Part shown: positions 6,541 to 58,475 of the stretch, piece by piece | Layout of the letters: each line of letters begins with the position of its first letter | Numbering within the stretch: the stretch's first letter is position 1 | NCBI GenBank assembly: GCA_963719495.1 | Contig: CAVRCI010000001.1 | Location: 224,001 to 288,000 of the forward strand | Length of the DNA: 64,000 bases | Direction: 5' to 3' | Source of the DNA: an uncultured Verrucomicrobiae bacterium | GTDB lineage: Bacteria; Verrucomicrobiota; Verrucomicrobiia; Chthoniobacterales; JAATET01 | Position numbers and translations under genes: made by a program | Notes under the pieces: model-generated | Told to the model about the DNA's origin: nothing | Databases searched by the model: none | Seen by the model: only the letters and a program-made list of their open reading frames with translations

Positions 6541-8991
6541 ATGCAAACGCATCATCTCCTGCCAAAACTCCTCGCCGTGCGCATCCCGCCCCCCCTCCGG
6601 CTTCCGCTCGTCCTGGCCGTTACGGCAGTCGCGTTGTCGGATTTCGCTCGCGCCCAGGACTCGACAACCTTCCCGGCGGACGAAGCCAACGTCCGCGAAC
6701 TCCTCCGCACCGGATCCTACCCGGAAGCCCTCGCCGCCGCCGAACGCTCCGCCCGCTTCCCCGATCATCCGATCCAGCGGGCGCTGTTGCTCCACCACGC
6801 GATGACTCCCCTCCGTCCGCGCGACCGAGCCCTCGGCCAACTCTACGCCGCCGTCCGCAACCCGACCGACCTCGCCAACGCGACGCCCGACTCCCTCATC
6901 GCGCTCGGCCGAGCCCGCCTCCTCCTCGGCGACGACCCGCGCGAGATCATCCGCCAATGCTACGATCCCGCCAAAGCCGCGGCCCCGAAAGATCCCGCCC
7001 CGCTGATCGCCATCGGCGACCTCGCTCTCGCCAAGCGGGACGACCACCTCGCCGCGACCCACTACCGCGCGGCCCTCGCCCTGCTTCCCGCCAACGCACC
7101 CGACCCCGACGTCCTCGCCCGCCTCGCCCGCGCCCTCTCGCCGACCAACCCCCGCGCCACCGACGACACCCTCGCCGCCGCGCTCACCGCCGATCCGACC
7201 AACCTCCCCGCCCTTCAGCTCCAGGCCGAAACTCTCATCGCCCGCGACCAATTCGACGAAGCCCGCGCGGCCATCGCCAGAATCCTCGCCGTCAATCCCC
7301 ACCACGTCGCCGCCCACGCCCTCACCGCCGCCATCGCCCAACTCACCGGCGACTCCGCCGCCATGGCCGCCGCCCGCGCCCGCGCCCTCGCGCCCTGGCC
7401 GGGCAGCCCCGAACCCGACCTCCTCATCGGCCGCACCCTCGCCGCCCAGATCCGCCCCGCCGAAGCCATCGAATTCCTCCGCCTCGCCCTCCGCGCCGAC
7501 CCCAACAATCTCGAAACCAACTTCCTCCTCGGCTCCACCCTCCTCCGCTTCGGTCGCGAGCCGGAAGGCTGGCCCTTCATCGAAGCCACCTTCGACGCCG
7601 ACCCCTACCACGTCGCCGCCTTCAACCTGCTCGAACTCCGCGACCGCACCGACCGCCACACCACCCTCGAACGCGACGGCATCCGCCTCCGCATGGACCC
7701 GACCCAGGCCACCGTCTACGGCCAACGCGCCCTCGACCTCCTCGCCCGCGCCCGCGACACGCTCACGGCAAAATACCGCACCGCCGTCCCGAATCCCGTC
7801 ACCGTCGAGATCTACGCCGACCAGCGTGACTTCGCCATCCGCACCTTCGGCGTCCCCGGGGGCGAGGGCTTCCTCGGCGTCTGCTTCGGCCCCCTGATCA
7901 CCGCCAGCGGCCCCGGCACCAACCTCGGCCGCGCGAACTGGGAAGCCGTCCTCTGGCACGAATTCGCCCACACCGTCACGCTCACCCACACCCACCACCG
8001 CATCCCCCGTTGGCTGTCCGAAGGCATCTCCGTCCACGAGGAACGCCGGGCCGACCCCCGCTGGGGCTTCGCCCTCACGCCCCGCCTTCGCCAGGCCATC
8101 GTCGAGGATAAAATCCCGCCCATCGACAAGCTCGACGCCGCCTTCCGCACCGGCGACTTCCCGCTCGCCTACTACGTCTCCTCACTCGCCGTCGACTACA
8201 TCGTCGCCACCCACGGTTTCGATTCCCTCCGCGCCGTCCTCGACGACCTCCGCGCCCGCCGCCCGCTCGCCGAGTCCCTCGCCGCCCGCCTCGCCCCGCT
8301 CCCCGACCTCCGCGCCGGCTTCACCGCCTACGCCAAAGAAATCACCACCGCCGCCGGCCCCAACCTCGATTGGACGCCCCTCACCGAATCCGACCAGGAC
8401 GCCATCGTCAACAACCCGGACGCCTGGCTCCAATCCCATCCCACCAACTACTGGGGCCTCACCGCCCACGCCCGCCACCTCGTCGAAAACGCCGACCACA
8501 CCACCGCCCGCCCCCTCCTCGAGCGCCTCGTCGACCTCTACCCCGGCAACCACGACGACCCCAATCCCCGCGCCCTCCTGGCCACCGTCTACAAACACCT
8601 CGACCAACCCGACCGCGAGCGCCGGACGCTCGCCGACCTCAACGCCCTCGACGCCGGCAACCTCCCCGCCCTCCACCGCCAACTCGAACTCACCACCGAT
8701 CCCGTCGAAACCGCCAAAATCACCGAAGCCCTCCTCGCCATCGACCCGCTCAACCCATTGACCCACGCCTCCCGTGCCGCCAACGCAACCCTCACCCCGA
8801 CCCAGCGGGATTCCGCCTTCACCGCCCTCCTCGCCCTCGGCCCACCCGACGAAGCCCGCACCCGCTACGACTACGCGCAATTCCTCCGCCCCACCGACCC
8901 GGAGCGATCCCGCCGCCAAGTCCTGAAGGCCCTCGAACAAACCCCCAGATACCGAGCCGCCCAAACCCTTCTCTTAGATCTCCAAAAATGA
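6541..8991 (+). CDS. Secreted TPR-repeat protein with clan MA (gluzincin-like) zinc peptidase domain
   Basis: Signal-like N-terminus, many TPR helices, HEFAH followed by 'PRWLSEGIS' (third-ligand Glu). Confidence 0.8.
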   Translation: MQTHHLLPKLLAVRIPPPLRLPLVLAVTAVALSDFARAQDSTTFPADEANVRELLRTGSYPEALAAAERSARFPDHPIQRALLLHHAMTPLRPRDRALGQLYAAVRNPTDLANATPDSLIALGRARLLLGDDPREIIRQCYDPAKAAAPKDPAPLIAIGDLALAKRDDHLAATHYRAALALLPANAPDPDVLARLARALSPTNPRATDDTLAAALTADPTNLPALQLQAETLIARDQFDEARAAIARILAVNPHHVAAHALTAAIAQLTGDSAAMAAARARALAPWPGSPEPDLLIGRTLAAQIRPAEAIEFLRLALRADPNNLETNFLLGSTLLRFGREPEGWPFIEATFDADPYHVAAFNLLELRDRTDRHTTLERDGIRLRMDPTQATVYGQRALDLLARARDTLTAKYRTAVPNPVTVEIYADQRDFAIRTFGVPGGEGFLGVCFGPLITASGPGTNLGRANWEAVLWHEFAHTVTLTHTHHRIPRWLSEGISVHEERRADPRWGFALTPRLRQAIVEDKIPPIDKLDAAFRTGDFPLAYYVSSLAVDYIVATHGFDSLRAVLDDLRARRPLAESLAARLAPLPDLRAGFTAYAKEITTAAGPNLDWTPLTESDQDAIVNNPDAWLQSHPTNYWGLTAHARHLVENADHTTARPLLERLVDLYPGNHDDPNPRALLATVYKHLDQPDRERRTLADLNALDAGNLPALHRQLELTTDPVETAKITEALLAIDPLNPLTHASRAANATLTPTQRDSAFTALLALGPPDEARTRYDYAQFLRPTDPERSRRQVLKALEQTPRYRAAQTLLLDLQK

Positions 8992-9872
8992 ACGCCAAGC
9001 GTGAACCGGGGGAAAACAGGCATCCTGCCTGTCGCGTCGGGGTTGCCTTCGGCGGTCTCCGCTCCGCTACGGCTCCAGCCCGACGCCTCGCCCAAACCGG
9101 CGCAGCCGCACTCCTCCTTCTCACGACCCTCCCCCCAAAAACCACCCAAGCCACCCCGGAAATCACCACCGACCGAGGCGGCACCCCCACTTGGAAGATC
9201 GACCCCCAATTCCTCGGCGAAGCCTTCACCTTCGTCCGCCTCCGCCCCCGCAACCACTCCGCGTGGCGCACCGACTTCCCCGACGCCGACATCAACTTTC
9301 CCTACCGCCTCCATCAACTCACCACCATCCTCGTCAACCCCGACCCCGTCGTCATCGAGGTCACCGACCCCGCCCTCCGCGACTACCCCTTCGTCTACAC
9401 CGCCGAACCAAGGACCCTCGACCTCCAACCCGACGAAGTCGAAATCCTCCGCGACTATCTTCTCAACGGCGGATTCCTCCTCGTCGACGACTTCTGGGGC
9501 GAATCCGAATGGGCCAACGCCTACCGCAACCTCGAGCTCATTTTCCCCAACCGCGAGCCCGTCGATCTCCCCCTCGACCACCCGATCTTTCACTCCGTCT
9601 TCGACCTCGAACGCAAACCCCAGATCCCGGACATCGAGACCGCCATCCAGGGCCGCTCGCAAGGCATCACCTGGGAAAAAGACGGACGCGATCCGCATTA
9701 CCAAGCCTGGTTCGACGACGAAGGCCGCATGATGGCCCTCCTCTGCCACAACACCGACCTCGGCGACGGCTGGGAACGCGAGGGCGAGAACGAATGGTTC
9801 TTCCACGAATTCTCCGAGAAGCAAGCCTACCCCATGGGCATCAACATCGTCTTCTACGTCCTAACCCATTAG
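8988..9872 (+). CDS. DUF4159 family protein
   Basis: ATGA overlap with upstream stop; 'WRTDFPDAD', 'YLLNGGFLLVDDFWG', 'DHPIFH', 'NTDLGDGWE', 'MGINIVFY'. Confidence 0.85.
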   Translation: MNAKREPGENRHPACRVGVAFGGLRSATAPARRLAQTGAAALLLLTTLPPKTTQATPEITTDRGGTPTWKIDPQFLGEAFTFVRLRPRNHSAWRTDFPDADINFPYRLHQLTTILVNPDPVVIEVTDPALRDYPFVYTAEPRTLDLQPDEVEILRDYLLNGGFLLVDDFWGESEWANAYRNLELIFPNREPVDLPLDHPIFHSVFDLERKPQIPDIETAIQGRSQGITWEKDGRDPHYQAWFDDEGRMMALLCHNTDLGDGWEREGENEWFFHEFSEKQAYPMGINIVFYVLTH

Positions 9873-10040: not shown

Positions 10041-11027
10041 ATGACCACCGACCAACAAACCCTCGAACGCCTCCTCCACGGCCGCACCCAGATCCGCGCC
10101 GAACTCGCCAAGGTCATCGTCGGCCAGCACGACGTCATCCATCAGCTCCTCATCGCGCTCCTCTCCGGCGGCAACTGCCTCATCACCGGAGCCCCCGGCC
10201 TCGCCAAGACCCTCGTCATCCGCACCCTCGCCCGGGTTTTTCACCTGAAGTTCCAGCGCATCCAATTCACCCCCGACCTCATGCCCGCCGACATCACCGG
10301 CACCGAGATCCTCCGCGAGACCCCCGACGGCCAGCGCGAACTCACCTTCGTCCCCGGCCCCATCTTCGCGAACATCATTCTCGCCGACGAAATCAACCGC
10401 ACCCCGCCAAAAACCCAGTCCGCCCTCCTCGAAGCCATGCAGGAACGCCAGGTCACCGTCGGCGGACGCACCCACCCCCTCGACCCACCCTTCTTCGTCC
10501 TTGCGACCAAGAACCCCATCGAGATGGAAGGCACCTACCCCCTCCCCGAAGCCCAGCTCGACCGCTTCATGTTCGACGTCCTCATCGACTACCTCCCCGA
10601 AGACGACGAAGTCACCGTCGTCGCCCAGACCACCTCCACCCGCCCGGAACCCGTCCAGGCCCTCTTCACCGGCGAGGACCTCCTCGCCTTCCAGAATCTC
10701 GTCCGCCGCGTCCCCATCGCCTCCGACGTCATCCGCTATGCCGTCCGCCTCGCCGCCGCCAGCCGCCCCCACCAACCCGGCACCCCCGCCTTCATCAACG
10801 ACTGGGTCAGCTGGGGAGCCGGCCTCCGCGCTGCCCAATTCCTCGTCCTCGGAGCCAAAGCCCACGTCCTCCTCGAAGACCGCACCCACGTCACCCCCGC
10901 CGACATCCGCCACTTAGCGCTCCCCACCCTCCGCCACCGCATCCTCCCCAACTACCGAGCCGAAGCCGAAGGCATCACCCCCGAAAACATCATCACCCGC
11001 CTAACCGCCGAAATCAAACCAACCTAA
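10041..11027 (+). CDS. MoxR family AAA+ ATPase
   Basis: GAPGLAKT Walker A, RIQFTPDLMPAD, LADEINR Walker B, LPEAQLDRF. Confidence 0.95.
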   Translation: MTTDQQTLERLLHGRTQIRAELAKVIVGQHDVIHQLLIALLSGGNCLITGAPGLAKTLVIRTLARVFHLKFQRIQFTPDLMPADITGTEILRETPDGQRELTFVPGPIFANIILADEINRTPPKTQSALLEAMQERQVTVGGRTHPLDPPFFVLATKNPIEMEGTYPLPEAQLDRFMFDVLIDYLPEDDEVTVVAQTTSTRPEPVQALFTGEDLLAFQNLVRRVPIASDVIRYAVRLAAASRPHQPGTPAFINDWVSWGAGLRAAQFLVLGAKAHVLLEDRTHVTPADIRHLALPTLRHRILPNYRAEAEGITPENIITRLTAEIKPT

Positions 11028-11183: not shown

Positions 11184-12095
11184 GTGCCCGCCGCCCACGA
11201 CCCCGCCACCCTGATGCGCATCCGCAATCTGGAACTCCGCGCGCGCACCGTCATCGACGGCCTCTGGACCGGCATCCACCGCAGCGACACGCACGGCTTC
11301 TCCGCCGAATTCGCCGAATACCGCCACTACCAACCCGGCGACGACATCCGCACCCTCGACTGGAAACTCTACGCCCGCTCCGACCGCACCTACGTCCGCC
11401 GCTACGAAGAAGACACCTCCCTCAGCTGCACCCTCCTCGTCGACCGCAGCCGCTCGATGAACTTCACGTCTCTCACCTACACCAAAGCCGACCTCGCCCG
11501 CACTCTCGCCGCCACCTTCGCCCTCTACCTCCGCGGCCAGGGCGACGCCACCGGCCTCCTCACCTTCTCCGACCAGGTCCACGATTACCTCCCCCCCTCC
11601 ACCCGCCCCGCCCAGATCCACGCCCTCATCCTCGCGTTGGAAAGCGCCAACTCCGGCACCTCCACCGACCTCACCCAACCCCTCGAGCGCATCGCCGCCC
11701 TCATCCGCCGCCGCAGCCTCGTCATCATCCTCTCCGACCTCCTCGTCCCCACCGAAGCGCTCGAACACCGCCTCTCCCTCCTCGCGGCCCGGGGCCACGA
11801 AGTCGTCCTCTTTCAAATCCTCGACCCCGCCGAAATCAACTTCACCTTCGCCGACGCCACCATCTTCGAAGACCTCGAGACCGGCACCCACCACCCCACC
11901 GACCCCACCACCGTCCGCGACGCCTACCTAAAAAACTTCAACACCCACCAAACCACCCTAAGCCAACTCTGCCAACGCATCGGCATCACCCACCACCTCT
12001 TCCCCACCGACCAACCCTTGGCGACCGCCCTCTACCAATACCTAAAAACCCGCCAAACCCACCGAAGGATCCGCCGAACGTCCAACAAAGCCTAG
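11184..12095 (+). CDS. DUF58 family (vWA-like) protein
   Basis: 'GIHRS...EFAEYRHYQPGDDIRTLDWK', 'DRSRSM', 'ILSD'; directly follows moxR. Confidence 0.92.
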   Translation: MPAAHDPATLMRIRNLELRARTVIDGLWTGIHRSDTHGFSAEFAEYRHYQPGDDIRTLDWKLYARSDRTYVRRYEEDTSLSCTLLVDRSRSMNFTSLTYTKADLARTLAATFALYLRGQGDATGLLTFSDQVHDYLPPSTRPAQIHALILALESANSGTSTDLTQPLERIAALIRRRSLVIILSDLLVPTEALEHRLSLLAARGHEVVLFQILDPAEINFTFADATIFEDLETGTHHPTDPTTVRDAYLKNFNTHQTTLSQLCQRIGITHHLFPTDQPLATALYQYLKTRQTHRRIRRTSNKA

Positions 12096-12104
12096 CCAGC
12101 CGCC

Positions 12105-12154
12105 CTCGAGGAGCGGCGATTTGCAATCGCCGAACCAACCCAACGGCGAAGCCG
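12105..12154 (+). repeat. REP-like family B (GGAG + CGGCGATT-TGC-AATCGCCG hairpin)
   Basis: Other copies at 17620-17670, 20182-20215 and 39131-39182. Confidence 0.85.
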
Positions 12155-12179
12155 CAAACCAAAAGCCTAAACACCCCCC

Positions 12180-14207
12180 GTGTCCTTCCTAACCCCATTC
12201 TTCCTCCTGGCAGGGATCGCAATAGCGATCCCCCTCATCCTCCATTTCACCCGTCACCGCCCAAAAAACGTCACCCCCTTCTCCGCGTCGATCTTCCTCC
12301 CCCCCGACCGCCCCACCCTCCGCAAGCGGCGTCACCTCGAGAATTGGCCCCTCCTCCTGCTCCGCTGCCTCATCCTCCTCCTGCTAGCCGCGGCCTTCGC
12401 CCGCCCCTTCTTCAACGACCCCATCACCACCCTCGACCCAAGAGCCAACCAGCGAGTCATCATCCTCCTCGACACCTCCGCCAGCATGACCGCCGGGGAA
12501 CGCACGCGTCCCCGCGTTCGGGATGCGACGTCCCGCCGCATCACTCGGCAAAGCGCCAGCGAGCCGTCCCTCGAAGCCGTCCGCCAAATCACAACCAACC
12601 TCCCGCCAACCACCGACCTAGCCCTCATCACCTTCGCCCGCCGCCCCACCACCCACCTCGACTTCGAGCAATGGCGCGCCATCCCGCCCCCCGACCGCGC
12701 CGCCCATCTCGAATCCCTCCTCGCCAACCTCGAAGCCACCGACGCCGCCACCAACCCCGGCGAAGCCCTCGTCGCCGCCAACGACCTCCTCGCCGCCTCC
12801 GCCAGCCCCGACCCCGCGACGATCCACCTGATCAGCGATTTCCAACAAACCGCCGACTTCGAAGCCGTCACGACCATCGACTGGCCCGAAAACGTCACCG
12901 TCCACCCCATCCGCGTCCCCCACGACACCGACGCCATCCCAACCCTCACCCTGGCCAGCGCCACCGAAACCGAGATCACCCTCATCGCCACCAACCCCGG
13001 CCCCGCAAACACCGCGACCCTCACCCCCACCAATCACCAGTCACCAATCACCTCTCACCAGCTCCCCATCCCCCCCGGAACCACCCCCATCACCTTCCCG
13101 GCGGACCTCACCACCGCCTCCTACACCGCCACCCTCACCGGCACCGACTCCCCCTTCGCCACCGTCTACGTCGCCCAGTCTCGCCCACCGACAATCGCCG
13201 TCGACTACCTCGGCACCGACGACCCCACGGACACCACCGCCCTCCTCTTCTTCCTCACCCGCGCCCTCGCCAATCCCACCCGCTTCACCACCAACCTCGC
13301 AATCAATCAACCCCGCGACGACGCCTTCACCATCATCGCCACCGACTTCACCGAACCCACCGCCGCCCCCCTGCGCACCCAGCTCCTCGCCGGTTCCCAC
13401 GCTCTCCTGCTCCTCCGCAATCGCGCCGACGCCCGTTGGATCGAGGCCCTCACCGGCGACTCCGCCACCGCCCGCGAAGCCGCCACACCCCAGTTCGCCC
13501 TCCTCACCGCCCTCGACTATACCGACCCCATCATCGCCCCCTTCGCCGACCCGAGATTCAGCGACTTCTCGAAAATCCACGTCTGGAAACACCGCGCCCT
13601 CACCGGCCCCGCCCTCATCGAAGCCACCACCCTCGCCAGCTTCGACGACGGCACCCCCGCCCTCCTCCGCATCCCGGTCGGAGAAGGCAGCCTCCTCGTC
13701 CTCACCACCACCTGGACCCCCGCCGACAGCCAGCTAGCCGTCTCCTCCAAATTCGTTCCCCTCCTCCTCTCCATCCTGGAAACCACCGCCACCCTCCCCC
13801 CCACCCAGCGCCAGTATCTCGTCGGGGAACGCACGCCTCCCGGCGTGCGAGATGCGGCGTCCCGCCGCATCACCCGGCAAAGCGCCGCCGAGCCGAACAC
13901 CGACACCCCCGGCCTCCACGAAACCCCCTCCTTCACCTACGCCGTCAACGTCGATCCCCGCGAATCCGACCTCACCCCCCTCCCCGAAGCCGCCCTCCTC
14001 GCCCTCGACCTCCCCACCGCCGAAAAGCAACCCGCCGCCACCAAATCCACCCCCGACCGCACCCGCCAACTCGCCCTTCAGGAGCTCGAAGCCCGCCACC
14101 CCCTTTGGCCCACTCTCCTCATCGCCACCCTCGCCGTCATCTTCGCCGAAACCACCCTCGCCACCCGCATTCAATCCGCAATCCGCAATCCGCAATCCGC
14201 AATCTAA
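12180..14207 (+). CDS. BatA N-terminal domain + vWA membrane protein
   Basis: 'MSFLTPFFLLAGIAIAIPLILHF...LLLLRCLILLLLAAAFARP' (BatA N-terminus), DTSAS MIDAS, ISDFQ, 'AVNVDPRESDL', C-terminal TM. Confidence 0.88.
   Translation: MSFLTPFFLLAGIAIAIPLILHFTRHRPKNVTPFSASIFLPPDRPTLRKRRHLENWPLLLLRCLILLLLAAAFARPFFNDPITTLDPRANQRVIILLDTSASMTAGERTRPRVRDATSRRITRQSASEPSLEAVRQITTNLPPTTDLALITFARRPTTHLDFEQWRAIPPPDRAAHLESLLANLEATDAATNPGEALVAANDLLAASASPDPATIHLISDFQQTADFEAVTTIDWPENVTVHPIRVPHDTDAIPTLTLASATETEITLIATNPGPANTATLTPTNHQSPITSHQLPIPPGTTPITFPADLTTASYTATLTGTDSPFATVYVAQSRPPTIAVDYLGTDDPTDTTALLFFLTRALANPTRFTTNLAINQPRDDAFTIIATDFTEPTAAPLRTQLLAGSHALLLLRNRADARWIEALTGDSATAREAATPQFALLTALDYTDPIIAPFADPRFSDFSKIHVWKHRALTGPALIEATTLASFDDGTPALLRIPVGEGSLLVLTTTWTPADSQLAVSSKFVPLLLSILETTATLPPTQRQYLVGERTPPGVRDAASRRITRQSAAEPNTDTPGLHETPSFTYAVNVDPRESDLTPLPEAALLALDLPTAEKQPAATKSTPDRTRQLALQELEARHPLWPTLLIATLAVIFAETTLATRIQSAIRNPQSAI
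12495..12566 (+). repeat. REP-like family A double-hairpin element, in frame within CDS
   Basis: 72 bp encoding GERTRPRVRDATSRRITRQSASEP; homologous to intergenic copies at 21206, 53431 and 58397. Confidence 0.9.
13824..13895 (+). repeat. REP-like family A double-hairpin element, in frame within CDS
   Basis: 72 bp encoding GERTPPGVRDAASRRITRQSAAEP. Confidence 0.9.
14173..14204 (+). repeat. Heptamer tandem repeat (AATCCGC)x4.5 forming the C-terminus of the BatA/vWA gene
   Basis: Directly visible; ends at the TAA stop. Confidence 0.9.
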
Positions 14208-14209
14208 CG

Positions 14210-17200
14210 ATGCTCCCCGCCCTCCAAGCCCAACTTGCCGCCATCACCGCCCGCGCCCGCCTGCGCGCCCGCCGCACCACCGCCGCCCTCTGCGGCCTCG
14301 TCCTCGTCGCCATCGGCGTCGGCGGCCTTGCCCTCACCCTCACCACCGGCCTTCACCCCGGCTGGCTCCTCCTCACCCTCCTCGTTCTCGCCGCCGCCAG
14401 TTTCCTCGTCGTCCACCTCCACTCGAAAGCCCCCCCCACCGCCCGCGTCGTCCGCGAGATCGAGCGCAACCACCCCGAACTCCAAACCGCCCTCCTCGCC
14501 GCCACCGAAAACCGTCCCCAACCCGGCCAACCCCCCGACGACGACTTCCTCCGTCACCGCCTCGAACTCGCCCTCAGCTACGAAGCCGCCCACGGCGGCT
14601 GGGACGACACCGCCTCCCCCGGCCAACTCGCCCGCCTCTCCGTCGCCCTCTGGATCACCGCCGCCATCACCGCCGCGCTTTTCCTGACCTTCCTCGCCCT
14701 CGGTCTCCGGCGCACCATCCTCCCGTCCACCACCACGACCGCCGCCGACACCGGCCTCACCGTCGAACCCGGCAGCATCGAGATCGAACGCGGCACCCCC
14801 GTCGCCGTCCTCGCCCGCTTCGCCACCACCCCACCCGACCGCGTCACCCTCGAGATCGGCCCCGACGCCGACCACCTCACCCCCACCCGCCTCGACCGCA
14901 ACCTCGACGACCCCGTCTTCGCCACCACCGTTCCCCCCGTTCAAACCGACCTCGTCTACCGCGTCACCACCGACGCCGGACTCACCAGCCAGGTCCACAC
15001 CATCAGCGTCTTCGAATTCCCAAAAATCACCCGCCTCGACGCCACCCTCCAGCCCCCCGGCAATCCCGAATCCAATCCGCCCAAAACGATCGAAAACACC
15101 CGTGCCATCACCGCGCCCGAGGGCACCCTCCTCACCCTCACCATCACCACGAACCAACCCATCGCCGCCGCCGATCTCACGCCCGAAAAAGGCACCGCCA
15201 TCCCCCTCACCGTCGACCCCACCGCCCCCACCCGCCTCACCACCACCTTCGTCCTCACCCAATCCACCCGCTACACGATCGACCTCACCGACCCCGCCGA
15301 CCGCCGCAACCAGAAGCCCGAACGCTTCGACGTCAAAGTCACCAAAGCCGTCGTCCCGAAATTTGAAATCGCCCTCCCCCAGCGAGACGCCCGCGTCACC
15401 CCCATCGAGGAAGTCGCCTTCCAGATCGACGTCAAACACCGCGCCCCCCTCGCCGACCGCGGCCTCACGATCACCGTCGCCGACTCGCCCCCCGAGACCA
15501 TCGCCCTCGGCCCCGCCCCATCCGCGAAAACCCCCACCCCCATCCGCCACCTCCTCCGGCTCGAACCCCGCCACGTCCAGCCCAACGACCTCATCACCTG
15601 GTTCGCCTGGGCCGAAGACACCGCCCCCGACGGCACCCCCCGACGCACCGAGGGCGAACTCCAATTCACATCCGTCCGCCACTTCGAGGAAACCTTCCGC
15701 CGCCTCGAAGCCAACTCCCAGCCCGGCGAAAACCTCTGCGTCAAACTCATCAAGACCCAGAAGGAAATCGTCACCTCGACCTGGAACCTCCACCGCAACC
15801 CCACCCCGCCCCGCATCGACTCCGACGCCCCCCTCATCCGCGATTCCGAGCAGATCGCCATCGACATCGTCGACGAGCTCCAAACCATCCTCACCGACCC
15901 CCACGACCTCGTCATCCTCCGCGAAGCCCGCGAGGACATGACCGCCGCCCTCGCCACCCTCGGCTCCCTCATCGAAAGAACCGACCCCGACCTCATCTCC
16001 CTCGCGCTCGAATCCGAGACCCAGGCCCTCGCCAAGCTCCTCCAACTCTCTGGCAAGGATTGGCTCATGCTCGTCTCGAAAGACTCCGCCCCCGGCGACC
16101 CTCCCGGCCCCAGCCAATTCGACATCGACGTCGCCCCCATCGACGACCGCTACGAGGCCAACCAGGCCGCCACCGCCGAAGCCGATCCCGAAGGAGCCGC
16201 CGCCCGCCAGATCCTCAGCCGCCTCCGCGACCTCGCCAACCGCCAGAAAGACCTCAACGCCGCCATCAACGAACTCCTCATCGCCCTGCAACGAGCAAAC
16301 GACGAGACCGAACGCGAAGACCTCCAACGCCAGCTCGCCAAGCTCCGCCAGGAACAACTCGAAAACCTCGCCGAACTCGACCGACTCACCCAACCCCGCC
16401 CCGAACTCCGGGAGCAACCCCCAAAAACCGCCCAGCAATCCGAAATGGAATCCGCCCGCCGCGACCTCAACGCCGCCGCCGAAGCCCTCGAAAAATCCAA
16501 CCCCGCCGAGGCCCTCGCCAACGGCCGCCGAGCCGAGGAAAAACTCGAAGACCTCCGCCGCGACCTCGAAGCCCAGGCCGCCAACGCCTTCGCCGACGAA
16601 CTCCGCAACCTCCGCACCGCCGCCCGCGACCTCGCCGAAGAACAGCGCGCCATCTCCCAAGCCCTCACCGACACCCCGCCCCAATCCAGCCCGACCGAAC
16701 GCCAGCGCCCCGACCTCACCGACACCACCCCAGCCCCCACCGACCTCCCCGGTCGCCTCACCCGCCAGCGCGAGCAGCTCGCGAAAACCACCGCCGCCCT
16801 CGAATCCTTGGCTGAAGAAACGGCCCCCACCGAACCCCTCCTCGCCGACAACCTCACCGACGCCCTCCGCGAAACCGCCCGCGCCGGCACCGAGCAAACC
16901 CTCGAGCGAGCCAGCCGATTCAGCCAAGCCGGCAGCCCCACCTTCGCGAAAACCGCCTCCGACCAAGCCGCCGAATCCCTCGACCAACTCGCCGCCGACA
17001 TCGCGACCGCCGCCGCCAGCATCCTCGGCAGCGAAGAAAAAGCCCTCCGCTTCGCCCAATCCGAACTCGACCAACTCACCCAGCAAATCACCGAAAACAA
17101 TCCCAGCCCCCCCACACCCGGAGAGTCCCCCTCCCCCGGCCAATCCCCCGGCCCACCCGCCACCGCGTCCAACCCAGGCCAAGCTCCCTCCACCTCACCC

Positions 17201-17560
17201 CCACCAATCACCAATCACCAATCACCAATCACCGGCCCCACCTCCACCCACTCCGCCTGGTCCGACCGTCTCCGCAACGTCGAGGAACTCATCGACCTCC
17301 CCGAGGTCCGCGACTCCATCGCCCAAGCCCGCGAATTCGTCCGCTCCACCCGCCGAGACGCCATCCGGGGAAGCCGCGACCCGCAATGGGACCTCGTGGC
17401 GACCGAAATCCTCGCCCCGCTGGCCGAAGCGCAAACCCGCCTCCGAGAACAACTCGCCCGCCTAACCAAAGAAGACCCCCTCGTCCCCATCGAAAGAGAC
17501 CCCGTCCCAGCTCAATACACCGAAAGCGTAAAAACCTACTACGAACAGCTAGCGCGCTAA
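14210..17560 (+). CDS. Large membrane-anchored protein with Ig-like domains and long coiled coil (DUF4175-like)
   Basis: ATG 2 nt after upstream stop; N-terminal TMs, beta-rich middle, heptad-rich C-terminus ending 'PVPAQYTESVKTYYEQL'. Confidence 0.75.
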   Translation: MLPALQAQLAAITARARLRARRTTAALCGLVLVAIGVGGLALTLTTGLHPGWLLLTLLVLAAASFLVVHLHSKAPPTARVVREIERNHPELQTALLAATENRPQPGQPPDDDFLRHRLELALSYEAAHGGWDDTASPGQLARLSVALWITAAITAALFLTFLALGLRRTILPSTTTTAADTGLTVEPGSIEIERGTPVAVLARFATTPPDRVTLEIGPDADHLTPTRLDRNLDDPVFATTVPPVQTDLVYRVTTDAGLTSQVHTISVFEFPKITRLDATLQPPGNPESNPPKTIENTRAITAPEGTLLTLTITTNQPIAAADLTPEKGTAIPLTVDPTAPTRLTTTFVLTQSTRYTIDLTDPADRRNQKPERFDVKVTKAVVPKFEIALPQRDARVTPIEEVAFQIDVKHRAPLADRGLTITVADSPPETIALGPAPSAKTPTPIRHLLRLEPRHVQPNDLITWFAWAEDTAPDGTPRRTEGELQFTSVRHFEETFRRLEANSQPGENLCVKLIKTQKEIVTSTWNLHRNPTPPRIDSDAPLIRDSEQIAIDIVDELQTILTDPHDLVILREAREDMTAALATLGSLIERTDPDLISLALESETQALAKLLQLSGKDWLMLVSKDSAPGDPPGPSQFDIDVAPIDDRYEANQAATAEADPEGAAARQILSRLRDLANRQKDLNAAINELLIALQRANDETEREDLQRQLAKLRQEQLENLAELDRLTQPRPELREQPPKTAQQSEMESARRDLNAAAEALEKSNPAEALANGRRAEEKLEDLRRDLEAQAANAFADELRNLRTAARDLAEEQRAISQALTDTPPQSSPTERQRPDLTDTTPAPTDLPGRLTRQREQLAKTTAALESLAEETAPTEPLLADNLTDALRETARAGTEQTLERASRFSQAGSPTFAKTASDQAAESLDQLAADIATAAASILGSEEKALRFAQSELDQLTQQITENNPSPPTPGESPSPGQSPGPPATASNPGQAPSTSPPPITNHQSPITGPTSTHSAWSDRLRNVEELIDLPEVRDSIAQAREFVRSTRRDAIRGSRDPQWDLVATEILAPLAEAQTRLREQLARLTKEDPLVPIERDPVPAQYTESVKTYYEQLAR
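17205..17232 (+). repeat. Heptamer tandem repeat (CAATCAC)x4 inside CDS
   Basis: Encodes PITNHQSPIT; degenerate copies at 13031-13065, 42815-42830 and 58487-58516. Confidence 0.9.
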
Positions 17561-17575
17561 AAAAGTCTAATTCAA

Positions 17576-17670
17576 GGAGCGGCGGCTTCCAGCCGCCGAA
17601 CCGGCCAAGCGAAGCGAGCCTCGAGGAGCGGCGATTTGCAATCGCCGACCCAACCAAAACGGCAAAGCCG
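17576..17670 (+). repeat. Composite REP cluster (GGAG-CGGCGGCT-TCC-AGCCGCCG plus family B)
   Basis: First hairpin recurs at 20071-20093 and 53520-53542. Confidence 0.85.
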
Positions 17671-17733
17671 TCATTCCGCATCCCCATCCCCCACCCAGCC
17701 ACCCCAGGCACCCCGCCGAAAACCCACCCCCAC

Positions 17734-20055
17734 ATGACCCTCACCCTAGGCAACCCCACCTGGCTCCTCCCAGCCACCCTCGCGCTCCTCGCCTTCGCCC
17801 TCCTCCTCGCGTGGACCTACGCCCGCCTCCCCCACATCCCCGTCACCACCCGCCTCGCCTGCTTCATCCTCAAATTCCTCGGCACCGCCGCCCTCATTTT
17901 CTTCCTCCTCGACCCCCGTCTCGAGCGCCAGATCGCCAAGCCCGGAGCCAACCACGTCGCCATCCTCGTCGACCGCAGCGCCAGCCTCGAGATCCCCGAC
18001 CCCACCACCGGCCGACCCCGCTCCGAGGAAATCCGCGACCTCCTCGCCCCCGACGCCCCCTGGCTCACCAACCTCGCCGCCACCCACACCGTCCACCGCC
18101 ACGTCTTCGACTCCCGCGTCCGAGCCGTCCCCGACTTCACCACCCTCACCTTCGACGGCCACCTCACCTCCCTCCACCAAGCCCTCGCGGATCTCGCCGA
18201 CCGCACCACCAACCTCCCCCTCTCCGGCCTCATCCTCCTCACCGACGGCAACGCCACCGACCCCACCACCCTGGCGCAGCCGCAAACCATTTCTCATTCC
18301 CCATTTCAAATTTCAAATTCACCCCCAATCTACCCCGTCCTCCTCGGACCCGACACCGCCCCCCCCGACCTCCGAATCGTCCACACCACCGCCACCGAAT
18401 CCGCCTTCGAGGACACCCCCGTCACCATCGAAGTCGAGATCGAAGCCACCGGCTTCCAGACCCGCGACGTCAAGGTCCAGCTCCTCGACCCAGCGACCCG
18501 GCAAGTCCTCACCACCGAAAAACGCCGCATCGCCACCGACTCCGCCCGCCTCCCCATCCGCTTCGAAATCCGCCCAAAAAACCCCGGCCTCTTCACCGCC
18601 ATCGCCCGCGTCGAGTCCACCACCGGCGTCCCCGAAGCCACCCTCGCCAACAACGAACGCCTCATCGCCCTCCCCCGCCGCTCCGACCCCATCCGCGTCC
18701 TCTACGTCGGCGGACGCCCAAATTGGGAACACAAATTCCTCAAGCGTGCCCTCGACCACGACGACCTCGTCCAACTCGTCAGCCTCATCCGCATCTCCGA
18801 CCGCACCCCCCGCTTCGCCTGGCGCGACGCCACCGCCGCCACCACCAACCCGCTCTACCAAGGCTTCGAAGCCGCCGAAGACGAGGCCGAGCGCTTCGAC
18901 GAACCCGTCCTCGTCCGACTCGACACCCGCGACGCCGCCGAGCTCCGCGGCGGTTTCCCGACCGCCGCCGCCGACCTCAACGCCTACGACGCCCTCATCC
19001 TCGACGACCTGCCAGCCACCTTCTTCACCCGCGACCAGCAACGCCTCATCGAGAGTTACGTCGCCGATCGCGGCGGCAGCCTCCTCGCCCTCGGCGGCAA
19101 CGAATCCTTCCGCCGCGGCCACTTCGAACGCACTCCCCTCGCCGACCTCCTCCCCGTCTACCTCGACCGCGCCCAGCGTCCGCCCCCCCGCGGCCCCGTC
19201 CGCCTCGACCTCACTCGAGAAGGTCTCCTCGCCCCCTGGACCCGCCTCCTCCCCACCGCCGAAGCCGAAAGCGCCCGCCTTGCCGCCCTCCCCCCGCTCC
19301 GCGTTCTCAACGACACCGGCGACGCCAAACCCGGAGCCACCACCCTCGCCACCGCCACCGAAGCCGACGGCACCATCCACCCCGCCCTCATCGCCCAATC
19401 CTACGGCCAGGGCCGCGTCGCCGCCCTCACCACCGGAGACCTCTGGCGCACCGGAATGGAATCCCCCGCCGCCCGCCGCGACCTCGAACGCACCTGGCGC
19501 CAGCTGCTCCGCTGGCTCGTCACCGACGTCCCCACCCGCGCCACCCTCACCGTCCGCCCCGACCCAGCCGCCCCCGACCAATCCACCGAACTCCGCGCCA
19601 CCCTCCGCGACGAAGATTTCAATCCAAAAATCCAACCCGACGTTCCCCTCGAAATCACCAACCCAGACGGCACCACCACCCTCCGCACCGCCCAACCCGA
19701 CCCCGCCACCCCCGCCACCCCCGGCACCCACACCCTCACCACCACCGCCCCCGGCCTCCACCGCGCCAACCTCGAGGGTGCCCCCGAAATCGCCTGGACC
19801 CTCGACCCCGAAGCCAAAGAATTCGAAACCCTCGGCATCAACAGATCCCTCCTCCAAACCCTCGCCACCGCAAGCCAGGGCGAACTCCTCAACCCAGCCG
19901 ACTTGAAAACGATCTCCGAGCGCCTCACCAAAAACGCCCAGACCATCCTGGAAACCCAATCCACCCCCCTCTGGCACCAATGGCCCTTCCTCTTGGGCGC
20001 AATCGCCTGCTTCGCCGCGGAATGGACCCTCCGAAGAAAAAAGAACCTCCCATGA
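17734..20055 (+). CDS. Membrane protein with vWA-like and class-I glutamine-amidotransferase-like domains
   Basis: N-terminal TMs, DRSASL, LLTDG, 'NWEHKFLKRAL', 'YDALILDD', 'GGSLLALGG', C-terminal 'AEWTLRRKKNL'. Confidence 0.8.
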   Translation: MTLTLGNPTWLLPATLALLAFALLLAWTYARLPHIPVTTRLACFILKFLGTAALIFFLLDPRLERQIAKPGANHVAILVDRSASLEIPDPTTGRPRSEEIRDLLAPDAPWLTNLAATHTVHRHVFDSRVRAVPDFTTLTFDGHLTSLHQALADLADRTTNLPLSGLILLTDGNATDPTTLAQPQTISHSPFQISNSPPIYPVLLGPDTAPPDLRIVHTTATESAFEDTPVTIEVEIEATGFQTRDVKVQLLDPATRQVLTTEKRRIATDSARLPIRFEIRPKNPGLFTAIARVESTTGVPEATLANNERLIALPRRSDPIRVLYVGGRPNWEHKFLKRALDHDDLVQLVSLIRISDRTPRFAWRDATAATTNPLYQGFEAAEDEAERFDEPVLVRLDTRDAAELRGGFPTAAADLNAYDALILDDLPATFFTRDQQRLIESYVADRGGSLLALGGNESFRRGHFERTPLADLLPVYLDRAQRPPPRGPVRLDLTREGLLAPWTRLLPTAEAESARLAALPPLRVLNDTGDAKPGATTLATATEADGTIHPALIAQSYGQGRVAALTTGDLWRTGMESPAARRDLERTWRQLLRWLVTDVPTRATLTVRPDPAAPDQSTELRATLRDEDFNPKIQPDVPLEITNPDGTTTLRTAQPDPATPATPGTHTLTTTAPGLHRANLEGAPEIAWTLDPEAKEFETLGINRSLLQTLATASQGELLNPADLKTISERLTKNAQTILETQSTPLWHQWPFLLGAIACFAAEWTLRRKKNLP

Positions 20056-21206
20056 AAAAAACTAAATCAAGGAGCGACGGCTTCCAGCCGCCGGGGAGCG
20101 CACGCGTCCCCGCGTGCGAGATGCGGCGTCCCGCCGCATCGCAAGGCAAATCGAGCAAAGCGAGAGAGCCGAAGTCCACAAAGAGCGGCGATTTGCAATC
20201 GCCGAACCAACCCAACCGCGACCGAAGGTCGCCACTCCCCCTCCGCATCCTCACCGCCGCCGCAACCCTCATCGCCGCAACCCTCGCCCCCCTCCAAGCC
20301 ACCACCCCCCGCCAAATTCTCATCCTGGTCGGCACCCCCGGCGAAGACTCCTACGCCGAGCGATTCGCCACCTGGACCGCCAACGTCACCATCACCGCAA
20401 CCCGCGCCGGAATCACCCCAACCGTCATCGACGCCGAGACGCCCGACCCCCGCGAGGCCCTCACCGAATTCCTAAAACCGCTCGCCACCCCATCCGACCC
20501 AGCCACCCCACCCCCCAGCGAACTCTGGATCATCCTCATCGGCCACGGCACCGACGACGGCAAAACCGCCAACTTCAACCTCCAAGGCGACGACATCAGC
20601 CAGCACGAATTCGCCAAGCTCCTCGCCCCCATCCAGCGCCCCATCGTTTTCGCCAACCTCACCGCATCCAGCGGCCCCTTCCTCGAAGCGCTCTCCGGCC
20701 CCGACCGCACGATCATCACCGCCACCCGCGGCGGAAAACAGCGCGACTTCGCCCACTTCGGCGAATTCTTCACCAAGTCCCTCGCCGACCCCGTCGCCGA
20801 CCTCGACAAAGACGGCCAGACCTCCCTCCTCGAAGCCTTCCTCGCCGCCTCGACCGCCACCACCGCCTCCTACGAAGCCGACCAACGCCTCCCCGCCGAA
20901 AACGCCCTCATCGACGACAACGGCGACAAAAGAGGCACCCCCGCCGAAGCCTTCCAAGGCCTCACCCCAAAAATCGCCCCAATGTCCACCGAACTCCCCG
21001 ACGGCGAAATCGCCACCCGCATCGTCCTCATCCCATCCCCCGAAGAAGCCGCCATCCCGGAAAATCTCAAAACCCAACGCACCGCCATCGAACTCCAAAT
21101 CGCCCGCCTAAAAACCCAAAAACCAACCCTGGACGAGGACACGTTCTACGCCCGCCTGGAAATTCTCCTAATCGACCTCGCCCACCTCTACCAAAAAATC
21201 GACTAG
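20052..21206 (+). CDS. Secreted hypothetical protein, caspase/C13 (CHF)-fold-like; N-terminal ~60 aa are repeat-derived
   Basis: ATGA coupling; 'WIILIGHG', 'IITAT', 'DLDKDGQTSLLEAF'. Confidence 0.7.
   Translation: MKKTKSRSDGFQPPGSARVPACEMRRPAASQGKSSKAREPKSTKSGDLQSPNQPNRDRRSPLPLRILTAAATLIAATLAPLQATTPRQILILVGTPGEDSYAERFATWTANVTITATRAGITPTVIDAETPDPREALTEFLKPLATPSDPATPPPSELWIILIGHGTDDGKTANFNLQGDDISQHEFAKLLAPIQRPIVFANLTASSGPFLEALSGPDRTIITATRGGKQRDFAHFGEFFTKSLADPVADLDKDGQTSLLEAFLAASTATTASYEADQRLPAENALIDDNGDKRGTPAEAFQGLTPKIAPMSTELPDGEIATRIVLIPSPEEAAIPENLKTQRTAIELQIARLKTQKPTLDEDTFYARLEILLIDLAHLYQKID
20071..20238 (+). repeat. Composite REP cluster (four hairpin units, last one inverted) in frame at the 5' end of the 20052 CDS
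   Basis: Units at 20071-20093, 20093-20171 (family A), 20182-20204 (family B) and 20218-20238 (inverted GGAG-hairpin). Confidence 0.85.
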
Positions 21207-21285
21207 GGGAACGCACGCGTCCCCGCGTGCGAGATGCGGCGTCCCGCCGCATCACCCCGGCAAATCGAGCAAAGCGAGAGAGCCG
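21206..21285 (+). repeat. REP-like family A element, intergenic, overlapping the TAG stop
   Basis: ggggaacgcacgcgtccccgcgtgcgagatgcggcgtcccgccgcatc...gagagagccg. Confidence 0.9.
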
Positions 21286-21291
21286 CCGACC

Positions 21292-21975
21292 TCACCCACC
21301 CCGCCCAGCCAGCACCGCCTCCGCCAGCCCCACATCCCGTGGAATCGTCACCTTGAAATTCCAATCCAAATTCTCCACCAACCGCGCCGCCACCCCGATC
21401 CGCAGCACCGCCGAAGTTTCATCCGTCACCGCCACTCCGTCCCGCGCCACCGCCCCCAGCGCCCGCCGCAGCAACCCCGTCTCGAAAACCTGCGGAGTCT
21501 GAATCCGCCAAAGCTCCTCCCGGTCCACCACCTCGCCACCGCATCCATCCACCTCACGCTGCAGCGTATCCGTCACCCGCTCCGCCGCCGTCGCCGCACC
21601 GCCTTCCCGCGCCGCCGCCAAACACCGCGAGATCAGTTCCTTCGTCACAAGCGGCCGCGCCGCATCGTGCACCGCCACAAAATCCCCGGAAACCACCGCC
21701 ACCCCGCGCGCCACCGACTCCTGACGCGATTCCCCACCCTCCACAAACCGCACACTCATCACCCCAGAATCCATCCCAACCAGCGCCGCCCTCACCGCCG
21801 CCTCCCGCCCAGCCCCGACGACAACCACGACCTCGCCAACCTCCTCACACCTCGCAAACGCCCCCACCGACCACCGCACCAACGGCACTCCCGCCACCGG
21901 CACCATCACCTTATCAAACCCCATCCGGCGGCTCCCGCCGCCAGCCACGATCACCGCCGAGCAGTCACCCCTCAT
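21292..21975 (-). CDS. ispD: 2-C-methyl-D-erythritol 4-phosphate cytidylyltransferase
   Basis: AGGGSRRMG..K, GGESRQESV, VHDAARPL, QTPQVF, TDE, NFKVT. Confidence 0.93.
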   Translation of the reverse strand: MRGDCSAVIVAGGGSRRMGFDKVMVPVAGVPLVRWSVGAFARCEEVGEVVVVVGAGREAAVRAALVGMDSGVMSVRFVEGGESRQESVARGVAVVSGDFVAVHDAARPLVTKELISRCLAAAREGGAATAAERVTDTLQREVDGCGGEVVDREELWRIQTPQVFETGLLRRALGAVARDGVAVTDETSAVLRIGVAARLVENLDWNFKVTIPRDVGLAEAVLAGRGG

Positions 21976-22010
21976 TCAGCATTCAGCATTCAGCATTTCA
22001 AATTTCCCAT

Positions 22011-39070: not shown

Positions 39071-39182
39071 GGAACGGCGGCATCCCGCCGCCGAAGTCCG
39101 GCAAATCGAGCAAAGCGAGAGAGCCGACCCCTCGAGGAGCGGCGATTTACAATCGCCGAACCAACCCAATCCGGCGAAGCCG
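39071..39182 (+). repeat. Composite REP cluster (partial family A + family B)
   Basis: Shares ggcaaatcgagcaaagcgagagagccg and ggagcggcgattt.caatcgccgaaccaacccaa with other copies. Confidence 0.85.
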
Positions 39183-53430: not shown

Positions 53431-53542
53431 GGGGAACGCACGCGTCCCGCGTGCGAGCTGCGGCGTCCCGCCGCAGCGCACCCGGCAAGTCGAGCGAAGC
53501 GAGAGAGCCGAAGTAACCCGGAGCGGCGGCTTCCAGCCGCCC
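53431..53542 (+). repeat. REP-like family A element plus GGAG hairpin
   Basis: Homologous to 21206-21285 and 17576-17598; between convergent genes. Confidence 0.9.
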
Positions 53543-53577
53543 ACCAAATCAATTCGGCGAAGCCGAACACTCCCAAC

Positions 53578-56750: not shown

Positions 56751-56798
56751 CGCCAATGCAAAACTTCGATGCGGCCGCATCGAAGTTTTGCATTGGCG
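56751..56798. repeat. Perfect 48-bp palindrome
   Basis: cgccaatgcaaaacttcgatgcgg|ccgcatcgaagttttgcattggcg. Confidence 0.95.
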
Positions 56799-56858: not shown

Positions 56859-58397
56859 ATGCCCGCCGAGAAAGTCGACCTCCAAGCCAAGCTCCACGAC
56901 GTCCCGCACAAGCCAGGGTGCTACGTCATGCGCGACCGCTTCAAGCACGTCATCTACGTCGGCAAGGCCCGCGACCTCCGCAAACGCGTCAGCAATTACT
57001 TCATGCCGTCGCGCAAAATGACGGCCGACCTCAAGACCCGCGCGCTCATCGACAGCATCTGGGATTTCGAGTGGCACGTCGTCCGCAGCGAAGCCGAAGC
57101 CGTCCTTTACGAAGGCAAACTCATCAAAGAGTTTCGACCCAAATACAACATCTCCTTCAAGGACGACAAACGCTTCCTCCTCGTCCGCGTCAACGTCGAC
57201 GACCCCTACCCCCGCTTCGGCCTCACCCGCCTCAAAAAAGACGACGGCGCCCGCTACTACGGCCCCTTCGCCAACTCCGGCGCCCTCCGCACCACCCTCA
57301 ACGCCATCCGCAAACGCTTCGGCCTCCGCACCTGCCGCCCCCACGTCCCCACCGAGCGCGACTACAAACATTGCCTCAACGACATCATCAAAAACTGCAC
57401 CGCCCCGTGCATCGGCAAGATCGCCCAGGAAGAATACCGAGCCCGCGTCCTGCAGGCCTGCGAACTCCTCGAAGGAGAATCCAAGCAAATGATCGAGCAG
57501 GTCGAATCCGAAATGCAGGCCGCCGCCACCAAGCTCGACTTCGAAAAAGCCGCCCAACTCCGCAACCTCCTGGACGACCTGCGCACCACGACGAAGCCGA
57601 TGACCCGCTTCACGCGCAAAACCCTCCCCTCCGCCATCGACCCCGGAGCCGACCTCCTCGCCCTCAAAGACGCCCTCGCCCTCGAGTCCGAGCCCCGCAT
57701 CATGGAGTGCTTCGACATCTCCAACATCAGCAACACCCACATCGTCGCCTCGATGGTCCGCTTCAAAAACGGCGTCCCCGACCGCGCCGGCTACCGCCGC
57801 TTCCGCATCTCGATCAAACAACAGAACGATTTCGCCTCCATGGCCGAAGTCGTCCGCCGCCGCTACACGAGAATCCTCAAAGAAGCCGCCGAAAAGGACC
57901 CCGACGCCGACACCAACCAACTCCCCCCCGACGAAGCCGTCGACAGAGCATCCACTGCCACCGGCTTGCCGGATCTCATCATCGTCGACGGCGGCAAAGG
58001 CCAACTCTCCAGCGCCTGCAAGGAGCTCCAGCGCCTCGGTCTCCACAATCAGACCATCATCGGCCTGGCGAAAGAATTCGAAGAAATCTACCGCCCCGGC
58101 CGCGCCCTTCCCACCCGCCTCCCCGAAACCAGCGGAGCCCTCCGCCTCCTCCAGCGCATCCGCGACGAAGCCCACCGCTTCGCCAACGGCTACCACAGTC
58201 TCCTCCTCAAAAAGAGAATCAGCGAAAGCGTCCTCGACGACATCGAAGGCGTCAGCGAAAGCCGAAAAAAAGCCCTCCTCACCGAGTTCGGCAGCCTCGA
58301 CCGCCTCAGAAAAGCCACCCCCGAAAAGATCGCCGAGGTCAAAGGCATCAGCCCCCGCCTGGCCACCGAAATTGCCACCAGAATCAAAACCCGCTAG
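56859..58397 (+). CDS. uvrC: Excinuclease ABC subunit C
   Basis: GIY-YIG (PGCY..YVGKA), 4-Cys region, UVR, ECFDISN, VDGGKGQL, RDEAHRFA, HhH. Confidence 0.95.
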   Translation: MPAEKVDLQAKLHDVPHKPGCYVMRDRFKHVIYVGKARDLRKRVSNYFMPSRKMTADLKTRALIDSIWDFEWHVVRSEAEAVLYEGKLIKEFRPKYNISFKDDKRFLLVRVNVDDPYPRFGLTRLKKDDGARYYGPFANSGALRTTLNAIRKRFGLRTCRPHVPTERDYKHCLNDIIKNCTAPCIGKIAQEEYRARVLQACELLEGESKQMIEQVESEMQAAATKLDFEKAAQLRNLLDDLRTTTKPMTRFTRKTLPSAIDPGADLLALKDALALESEPRIMECFDISNISNTHIVASMVRFKNGVPDRAGYRRFRISIKQQNDFASMAEVVRRRYTRILKEAAEKDPDADTNQLPPDEAVDRASTATGLPDLIIVDGGKGQLSSACKELQRLGLHNQTIIGLAKEFEEIYRPGRALPTRLPETSGALRLLQRIRDEAHRFANGYHSLLLKKRISESVLDDIEGVSESRKKALLTEFGSLDRLRKATPEKIAEVKGISPRLATEIATRIKTR

Positions 58398-58475
58398 GGG
58401 AGCGCACGCGTCCCCGCGTGCGAGCCGCGGCGTCCCGCCGCGGCACCCGGCAAGTCGAGCGAAGCGAGAGAGCCG
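58397..58475 (+). repeat. REP-like family A element overlapping the uvrC TAG stop
   Basis: Same TAG-GGGA junction as 21204-21210. Confidence 0.9.

Follow-up and report, generated by a model that had tools for sequence, protein, structure and literature searches.

The window, the 64,000-nucleotide stretch analysed here, corresponds to C1:224001-288000 in the genome of an uncultured Verrucomicrobiae bacterium (G000; 4.54 Mb in 16 contigs). It contains an operon in which a gene for a BatA/vWA protein follows genes assigned by Pfam to a MoxR AAA ATPase and a DUF58 protein, and the BatA/vWA reading frame carries two copies of a palindromic repeat:

10041-11027, + strand: MoxR AAA ATPase gene, upstream in the batA operon
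11184-12095, + strand: DUF58 gene, between moxR and batA in the same operon
12180-14207, + strand: BatA/vWA gene, an open reading frame of 675 aa with both in-frame repeat copies
12471-12485, + strand: intact DxSxS motif (D98, S100, S102), in invariant alignment columns
12495-12566, + strand: coding copy 1, 72 bp, residues 106-129; net gain of 21 aa over both same-genus orthologues
13824-13895, + strand: coding copy 2, 72 bp, residues 549-572; net gain of 16 aa over the orthologue in genome G004

Pfam places a BatA domain at residues 1-76 of the 675-residue product and a VWA_2 domain at residues 93-222. A search matched 635 homologues; the listing covered the best 120, and 12 were placed in an alignment beside the query. 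D98, S100, S102, T191 and D220 are invariant in 13/13 aligned sequences, and the DxSxS motif formed by the first three is that of a MIDAS. The structure predicted from this 13-sequence alignment has a mean pLDDT of 75, with about 90 in the vWA core, beside which both inserts are predicted to be low-confidence loops (pLDDT below 50 over residues 109-115 and 117-126 of insert 1, and over residues 556-573 of insert 2). Tandem repeats of a 7-base unit also lie inside reading frames of the operon (13020-13058, 14172-14205 and 17194-17232) and give runs like IRNPQSAI. One contig of run X1 is identical over 12430-12585, spanning the left junction of copy 1 and reaching 19 letters beyond the right one; this run may be the source sample.

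The first-pass annotation had described two 72-bp copies in one common frame of this gene, and both their positions and their translated peptides hold. It had copy 1 directly after the DTSAS sequence; the copy does adjoin the motif, with three residues (MTA) standing between. It also expected 24-residue gaps in orthologues, where the alignment instead gives the net differences of 21 and 16 residues listed above. The two same-genus orthologues, in G003 and G004, are 68% and 66% identical to the protein. Both are without copy 1 and go straight into the first helix via MTALP or MSNST, so about three codons at site 1 were lost or replaced. Neither orthologue thus has the segment at this site, so the refutation named in the first-pass annotation does not apply there, which bears out the claim that a non-autonomous palindromic element put peptide segments into an intact gene. 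At site 2, G003 has a related copy with the same junction and the same rarer arm type but a different tail (4 non-synonymous changes and 1 synonymous change in 17 shared codons); G004 has no copy, and 12 residues against 28 in this protein; and in the majority of distant homologues the place is taken by an unrelated stretch of 30-40 residues, about as long as copy 2 or longer. Trees built on host RecG gave no clear order for G000, G001, G003 and G004, so the difference at site 2 may be a gain or a loss. The broader claim of new protein sequence in this lineage is right in that segments were added, but copy 2 is common to G003, and intragenic REPs are already catalogued in Opitutus terrae, which, going by the source names of the homologues, belongs to the same order (Opitutales).

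Both batA copies belong to a short-tailed subtype of 71-74 bp, most full copies measuring 78-81 bp. A 73-bp copy with the tail of copy 1 occurs outside batA at C9:118726, which means that the batA copies may have arrived short rather than being trimmed later. As RNA, copy 2 folds better than shuffled sequences (z -3.09) and copy 1 does not (z -1.16); the intergenic copies range from z -2.3 to -6.1.

A profile search found 7 repeat copies in the window. Those outside batA, and the gene that carries one of them, are:

20052-21206, + strand: downstream gene whose likely start ATG overlaps the preceding stop
20093-20171, + strand: third, probably coding, full copy, in frame in gene 20052-21206; its frame differs from that of the batA copies
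21206-21285, + strand: intergenic copy overlapping a TAG stop; the G003 copy at the same site is read as a C-terminal extension
39075-39126, + strand: partial copy, a tail common to the family behind a different hairpin
53431-53510, + strand: intergenic copy starting 4 nt past a stop
58397-58475, + strand: intergenic copy overlapping a stop

The intergenic copies reported earlier at 21206, 53431 and 58397 are real. A partial copy reported at 39071 is present at about 39075-39126, matching model positions 29-79 only, and the full copy at 20093-20171 had been missed. The N-terminal region of the gene at 20052-21206 holds three different REP types in frame; its ATGA junction is also found in G003, where the N-terminus is much shorter. 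Two more GGAG-footed hairpin families occur in the window, often in mosaics with the element (12104-12149, 17570-17664, 20065-20221, 39130-39175 and 53510-53555), and a hairpin of another type, starting GGGGA, sits in frame in the N-terminal part of a further operon gene (8988-9110). A perfect 48-bp palindrome stands between two genes at 56751-56798. Rfam gave no match at E<=0.1 over window positions 12000-22000.

The element comprises, in order, GGGGA, two hairpins in the same orientation, head to tail (an 8-bp stem looped by TCC(C), then a 9-bp stem looped by TCC), and a conserved tail. Each stem is present in 67/68 full copies, and both show compensatory variants. Among 120 copies with a full start, the foot is GGAG in 79, GGAA in 30, GGAT in 6 and GGAC in 5, and no CT or other target consensus was found 5' of these copies. 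Set against GTAG-type REPs, the element has a palindrome of the right kind (6-13 bp stem with a small loop), a high copy number with mostly extragenic copies near gene ends, and, in the recG cassette described below, a RAYT gene flanked by copies; its foot departs from GTAG and from GYAG, GTRG and GTGG. Judged by sequence features, it has REP anatomy with a non-canonical foot, and by that foot belongs to no catalogued GTAG family. A REPIN or BIME, in which an inverted REP pair is the mobile unit, is ruled out by the head-to-tail dispersed unit and by a single inverted arm in 115. A MITE is likewise ruled out: the element has no terminal inverted repeats (2-4/10 terminal bases complementary in 60/60 full copies) and no target-site duplication beyond chance (none in 57/60 and 2 nt in 3/60, equal to shuffles, taking the profile ends as the true ends). 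Nor is it a Rickettsia RPE or CGTC REP, as no CGTC end tag is present and a flanked RAYT is. The Rickettsia palindromic elements had been proposed as the analogue; the GTAG-type REP/RAYT system is closer. The element here has a purine foot and a flanked RAYT.

The genome-wide search called for by the first-pass annotation, with an nhmmer profile built from 68 full-length blastn matches, returned 137 matches at E<=0.01 in the 4.54-Mb genome. The exact arm-1 pattern has 106 matches in G000 and 0 for a reversed control. Element matches occur in 5/5 same-genus genomes (in G002 by tail only) and, weakly, in 1/25 others; with 10 (G001), 9 (G003), 5, 1 and 0 (G002) exact arm-1 matches in the relatives against 106 in G000, the element has expanded in the G000 lineage. 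Genes were called by a purpose-built two-strand model (78% coding), so that intergenic and N-terminal classes are approximate; by these calls, 124/137 copies lie outside genes, and of the 94 intergenic copies whose upstream gene is in sense, 61 begin at most 12 nt from its stop. Six of the 137 are internal and coding, with coding signal to either side (two in batA, one in carB, one in a PMT-family gene and two in recG); all are in sense orientation and together they use all three frames. Of the 68 full copies, 0, 1 and 3 have a stop in the respective sense frames, and 17, 8 and 10 in the antisense frames. Ten copies are candidates for coding N-terminal regions (14 were listed, 4 of them internal copies); the check covered the window copy at 20093.

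The carB copy (C1:172334) adds 45 aa in G000 at a site that is empty in G001, G003 and G004; in G002 and G027 the same site holds other hairpin-derived (REP) inserts (L102, L088). This carB loop is a recurrent landing site, with differing hairpin-derived inserts in three genomes and none in three. At the PMT-family site, compared without G004, where the gene is split, G002, G003 and G005 fall 15 aa short of G000, and G001 carries a related but decayed insert. Around another copy common to G000 and G003, a segment of about 0.9 kb (L125; C13:149744-150613 in G000) is 96-98% identical between these genomes, where 75-90% is usual, and is possibly a recent transfer. G000 also contains an abundant repeat of about 200 copies with overlapping 16-mers such as GCGCTGCAGCCAACCC, distributed 194 against 10 by strand; another group of 16-mers resembles a single CRISPR array.

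PF01797 has 12 matches in G000, three of which lie in RAYT cassettes in frame within other genes:

C14:100566-103301: RAYT cassette in recG (L040), flanked by this element
C10:1249-4494: RAYT cassette in leuS (L077), with its own hairpins
C13:378005-381415: RAYT cassette in alaS (L078), with its own hairpins

Six RAYT-like loci were scanned: recG alone is flanked by this element, three have hairpins of their own and two showed neither. The order in recG is direct copy, RAYT, direct copy, inverted copy; the insert begins with the GGGGA of a direct copy and ends, at the host junction, with an inverted copy, the sole one among 115 arm-1 matches. The gene reads as one 911-aa open frame in which RecG domains flank the RAYT, and the RAYT is not a free-standing gene with a start and stop of its own. 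The domain scores 85.1 bits against NF047646 (cut-off 80) and has the HUH motif DHVH and the tyrosine motif YICRNP; a single-sequence PDB search with the insert gave no match at E<=0.1. A RAYT is present at the same recG site in 4/5 same-genus genomes and three more distant ones, and the recG of G002 is empty. In-frame RAYT cassettes in relatives (L079-L091, L066, L063) lie in recG in at least 7 genomes, in alaS in at least 2 and in leuS in at least 2; by sequence reading, further hosts are valS (G024), carB (G027), a restriction-helicase-like gene (G001) and a cation-efflux-like C-terminus (G017).

Synonymous divergence between G000 and G003 is 0.13 in the insert and 0.43 and 0.34 in the two host halves, rising gradually away from the insert; between G001 and G004 it is 0.07 against 0.41 and 0.43. 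Hairpin constraint lowers dS at the insert ends, and the RAYT core by itself gives 0.16 and 0.06. Between the two pairs, the insert diverges more (0.65-0.80) than the host. As insert dS falls far below that of host recG within each pair, the cassette appears, from these alignments, to have been exchanged between species.

All 137 copies are read on the locally C-rich strand, as they are by third-position skew (local skew up to ~0.3), and so are 114 of the 115 arm-1 matches; the remaining match forms the right end of the recG cassette. Copy orientation flips at both assembled skew switches, C13 (646-710 kb) and C2 (797-825 kb), with one copy only beyond the latter. In G003, all 20 copies tested (of its 29 matches) have the same polarity, with weak skew in two regions. 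Genes are split nearly evenly by strand (1663 and 1769). Transcription is ruled out as the cause: 54/54 copies in convergent gaps are unreversed, and none of the 30 copies antisense to their upstream gene is reversed. Base composition is ruled out as well, the element not being C-rich as read (G 3612, C 3448). Other hairpin families are biased likewise (26/0, 61/1, 41/2 and 4/1; two of the exceptions flank RAYTs). The strand bias extends to many simple repeats, and part of it may therefore come from a mutational or deletion bias of a general kind. The GC skew of G000 is very strong for a 63% GC genome, third positions being 64% C on one strand and 50% G on the other, and most of the abundant repeats stand on the C-rich strand.

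The G-rich strand, which carries the 16S gene, ribosomal L3 and 33/54 tRNA-type genes, is probably the leading strand; dnaA (C13:403,610) does not mark the skew switch (~665 kb), lying ~260 kb from the skew minimum. With the G-rich strand leading, the foot-bearing strand would be the leading-strand template, equally the newly made lagging-strand sequence. For IS608 the strand used is the lagging-strand template (PMC3333891), and the genes of IS200 are oriented along with the replication fork (PMC3971601). The sense here would then be opposite to that of IS608, and may mean that the target is nascent lagging-strand ends, that the other strand is the substrate, or that reversed copies are purged.

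Taken as a whole, these observations are best explained, with a probability of roughly 70%, by a REP-type repeat that sits in predicted loops, is likely tolerated, and is likely spread by the recG RAYT. Of its parts, the reading of both batA inserts as tolerated REP-type copies is very probably correct, and the embedded RAYT is rather more probably than not the mobiliser of this element, the two forming a candidate enzyme-substrate pair identified by position. The RAYT would cut and join single-stranded copies of the repeat; tied to one arm of the replication fork, this action would give the fixed orientation. Copies just past stop codons would mostly be the ones to survive, and rare landings in a sense frame without a frameshift would be kept, since stops are all but absent from the three sense frames. 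A further-reaching version seems to us doubtful: the RAYT would act as a domain inside the fork-remodelling helicase RecG and copy the head-to-tail hairpin into one fixed fork arm, so that each replichore has one-way copies; the cassette would move between species by recG allele replacement, and the repeats would seed peptide loops in lagging-strand genes only.

Several other explanations deserve weighing. The batA gene might be decaying or silent, its frame open by chance: pairwise dN/dS is 0.60 against G003, 0.48, and 0.44 between the two relatives, values high enough that relaxed selection is possible, a full-length orthologue was found in 2/5 same-genus genomes (assemblies 79-97% complete), and copy 1 adjoins the metal site. 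Set against this are 675 open codons with two frame-keeping insertions, the retention of all MIDAS residues, the intact operon and ratios below 1; on those ratios batA is under purifying selection, though not strong, and we consider decay very unlikely. That the peptides are adaptive, for instance by adjusting the MIDAS site or replacing a loop that the genus had lost, strikes us as highly improbable. Two species whose proteins are 68% identical both retain copy 2 in frame, and its region is a long segment in distant homologues that is missing in G004; yet the inserts are modelled as low-confidence loops, the changes in the 17 common codons are 4 to 1 in favour of non-synonymous ones (small numbers), G004 does without either insert, and frames and peptides vary among host genes. 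The inserts are therefore likely tolerated rather than selected, although the neutrality of the loops is something we infer.

The spread and polarity of the copies might also have other causes. Real REP copies could have been spread by another PF01797 gene or by a lost enzyme, recG having merely accumulated or converted the repeat. The 12 PF01797 matches leave room for this, and cassette type matches copy number weakly across six genomes: the G003 RAYT is 94% identical and has the same flanks, yet that genome has 9 exact arm-1 matches against 106, while G001, with 10, has a different recG cassette. Orthologous sites in G000 and G003 often hold differing REP variants, suggesting replacement in place. 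But the recG RAYT is closed off, right at the host junction, by the sole inverted copy, three other RAYT loci carry other hairpins, and G002, with its empty recG, has 0 arm-1 matches, so a different spreader looks unlikely. The orientation could instead be fixed by purging after two-way entry, copies with the foot on the G-rich strand being deleted or harmful in replication. The many unrelated repeat 16-mers biased to the same strand speak for this, as does a direction opposite to the IS608 rule; however, the 137 include no young inverted copy despite many near-identical ones, the RAYT flanks of G000 and G003 retain inverted copies, and the element is not C-rich in the reading direction. We regard purging as rather unlikely, and retain the reading of a tolerated REP-type repeat likely spread by the recG RAYT.

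That repeat has its nearest known counterparts among the GTAG REPs of Opitutus terrae (Di Nocera et al. 2013, PMC3733652), which include GTAG-17/-18/-19 and are likewise short hairpins with a tetranucleotide foot found mostly just past genes. The covered sections of that paper describe about 70 intragenic cases in this species, REP dimers that yield 20-30 aa, and some ORFs that hold two. The GTAG-19 peptides GARASRP, GTGVPPV and GRDARAT resemble frames of our element, the comparison being by peptide products alone; the string GGAG is absent from the main text. In-frame palindromes that add peptide to functional genes are also a property of Rickettsia RPE-1, RPE-4 and RPE-6, of which, according to the same paper, RPE-4 and RPE-6 carry a CGTC tag and reportedly have no transposase of their own, and RPE-1 is longer; these are set apart by description. 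With the REPtron/RAYT (TnpA-REP) system, the element shares an HUH/Y1 transposase flanked by inverted hairpin copies, many dispersed copies and several RAYT-REP pairs per genome (PMC3333891, PMC8266576, PMC3337134, PMC5581495, PMC6006769, in the parts covered). Unlike REPtrons with a REPIN or BIME, its dispersed unit is not an inverted doublet, its RAYT is read inside RecG without a stop of its own, and the low synonymous divergence of the cassette points to interspecies exchange. Unexpectedly long proteins were dropped in PMC6006769 as fusions or annotation errors, and the covered part of PMC5581495 has no passage on RAYT fusions. With IS200/IS605 elements such as IS608, there is a likeness in single-strand HUH chemistry and fork-related orientation bias (PMC3971601, PMC3333891); in contrast to IS608, the bias here is complete (137/137), concerns a non-autonomous 80-bp repeat and is seemingly opposite, if the foot-bearing strand is the active one. 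A literature search of partial coverage, with some supplements of PMC3733652 and PMC6006769 outside it, found no paper that describes housekeeping genes with a RAYT domain in frame, and none on replichore-fixed REP orientation.

As intragenic REPs of O. terrae are already in print (PMC3733652), the in-gene copies are of a known kind and by themselves add one more case of a known phenomenon. Less ordinary are the complete one-way polarity and the likely mobiliser inside the recG frame. The spread of REPs in vivo is called unresolved in the covered part of PMC8266576, and canonical REP units, being inverted doublets, give no orientation signal; the complete polarity of this asymmetric unit is a natural record of insertion or survival tied to one fork arm. 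If the mobiliser works within RecG, it would show how a transposase thought immobile can persist and be exchanged.
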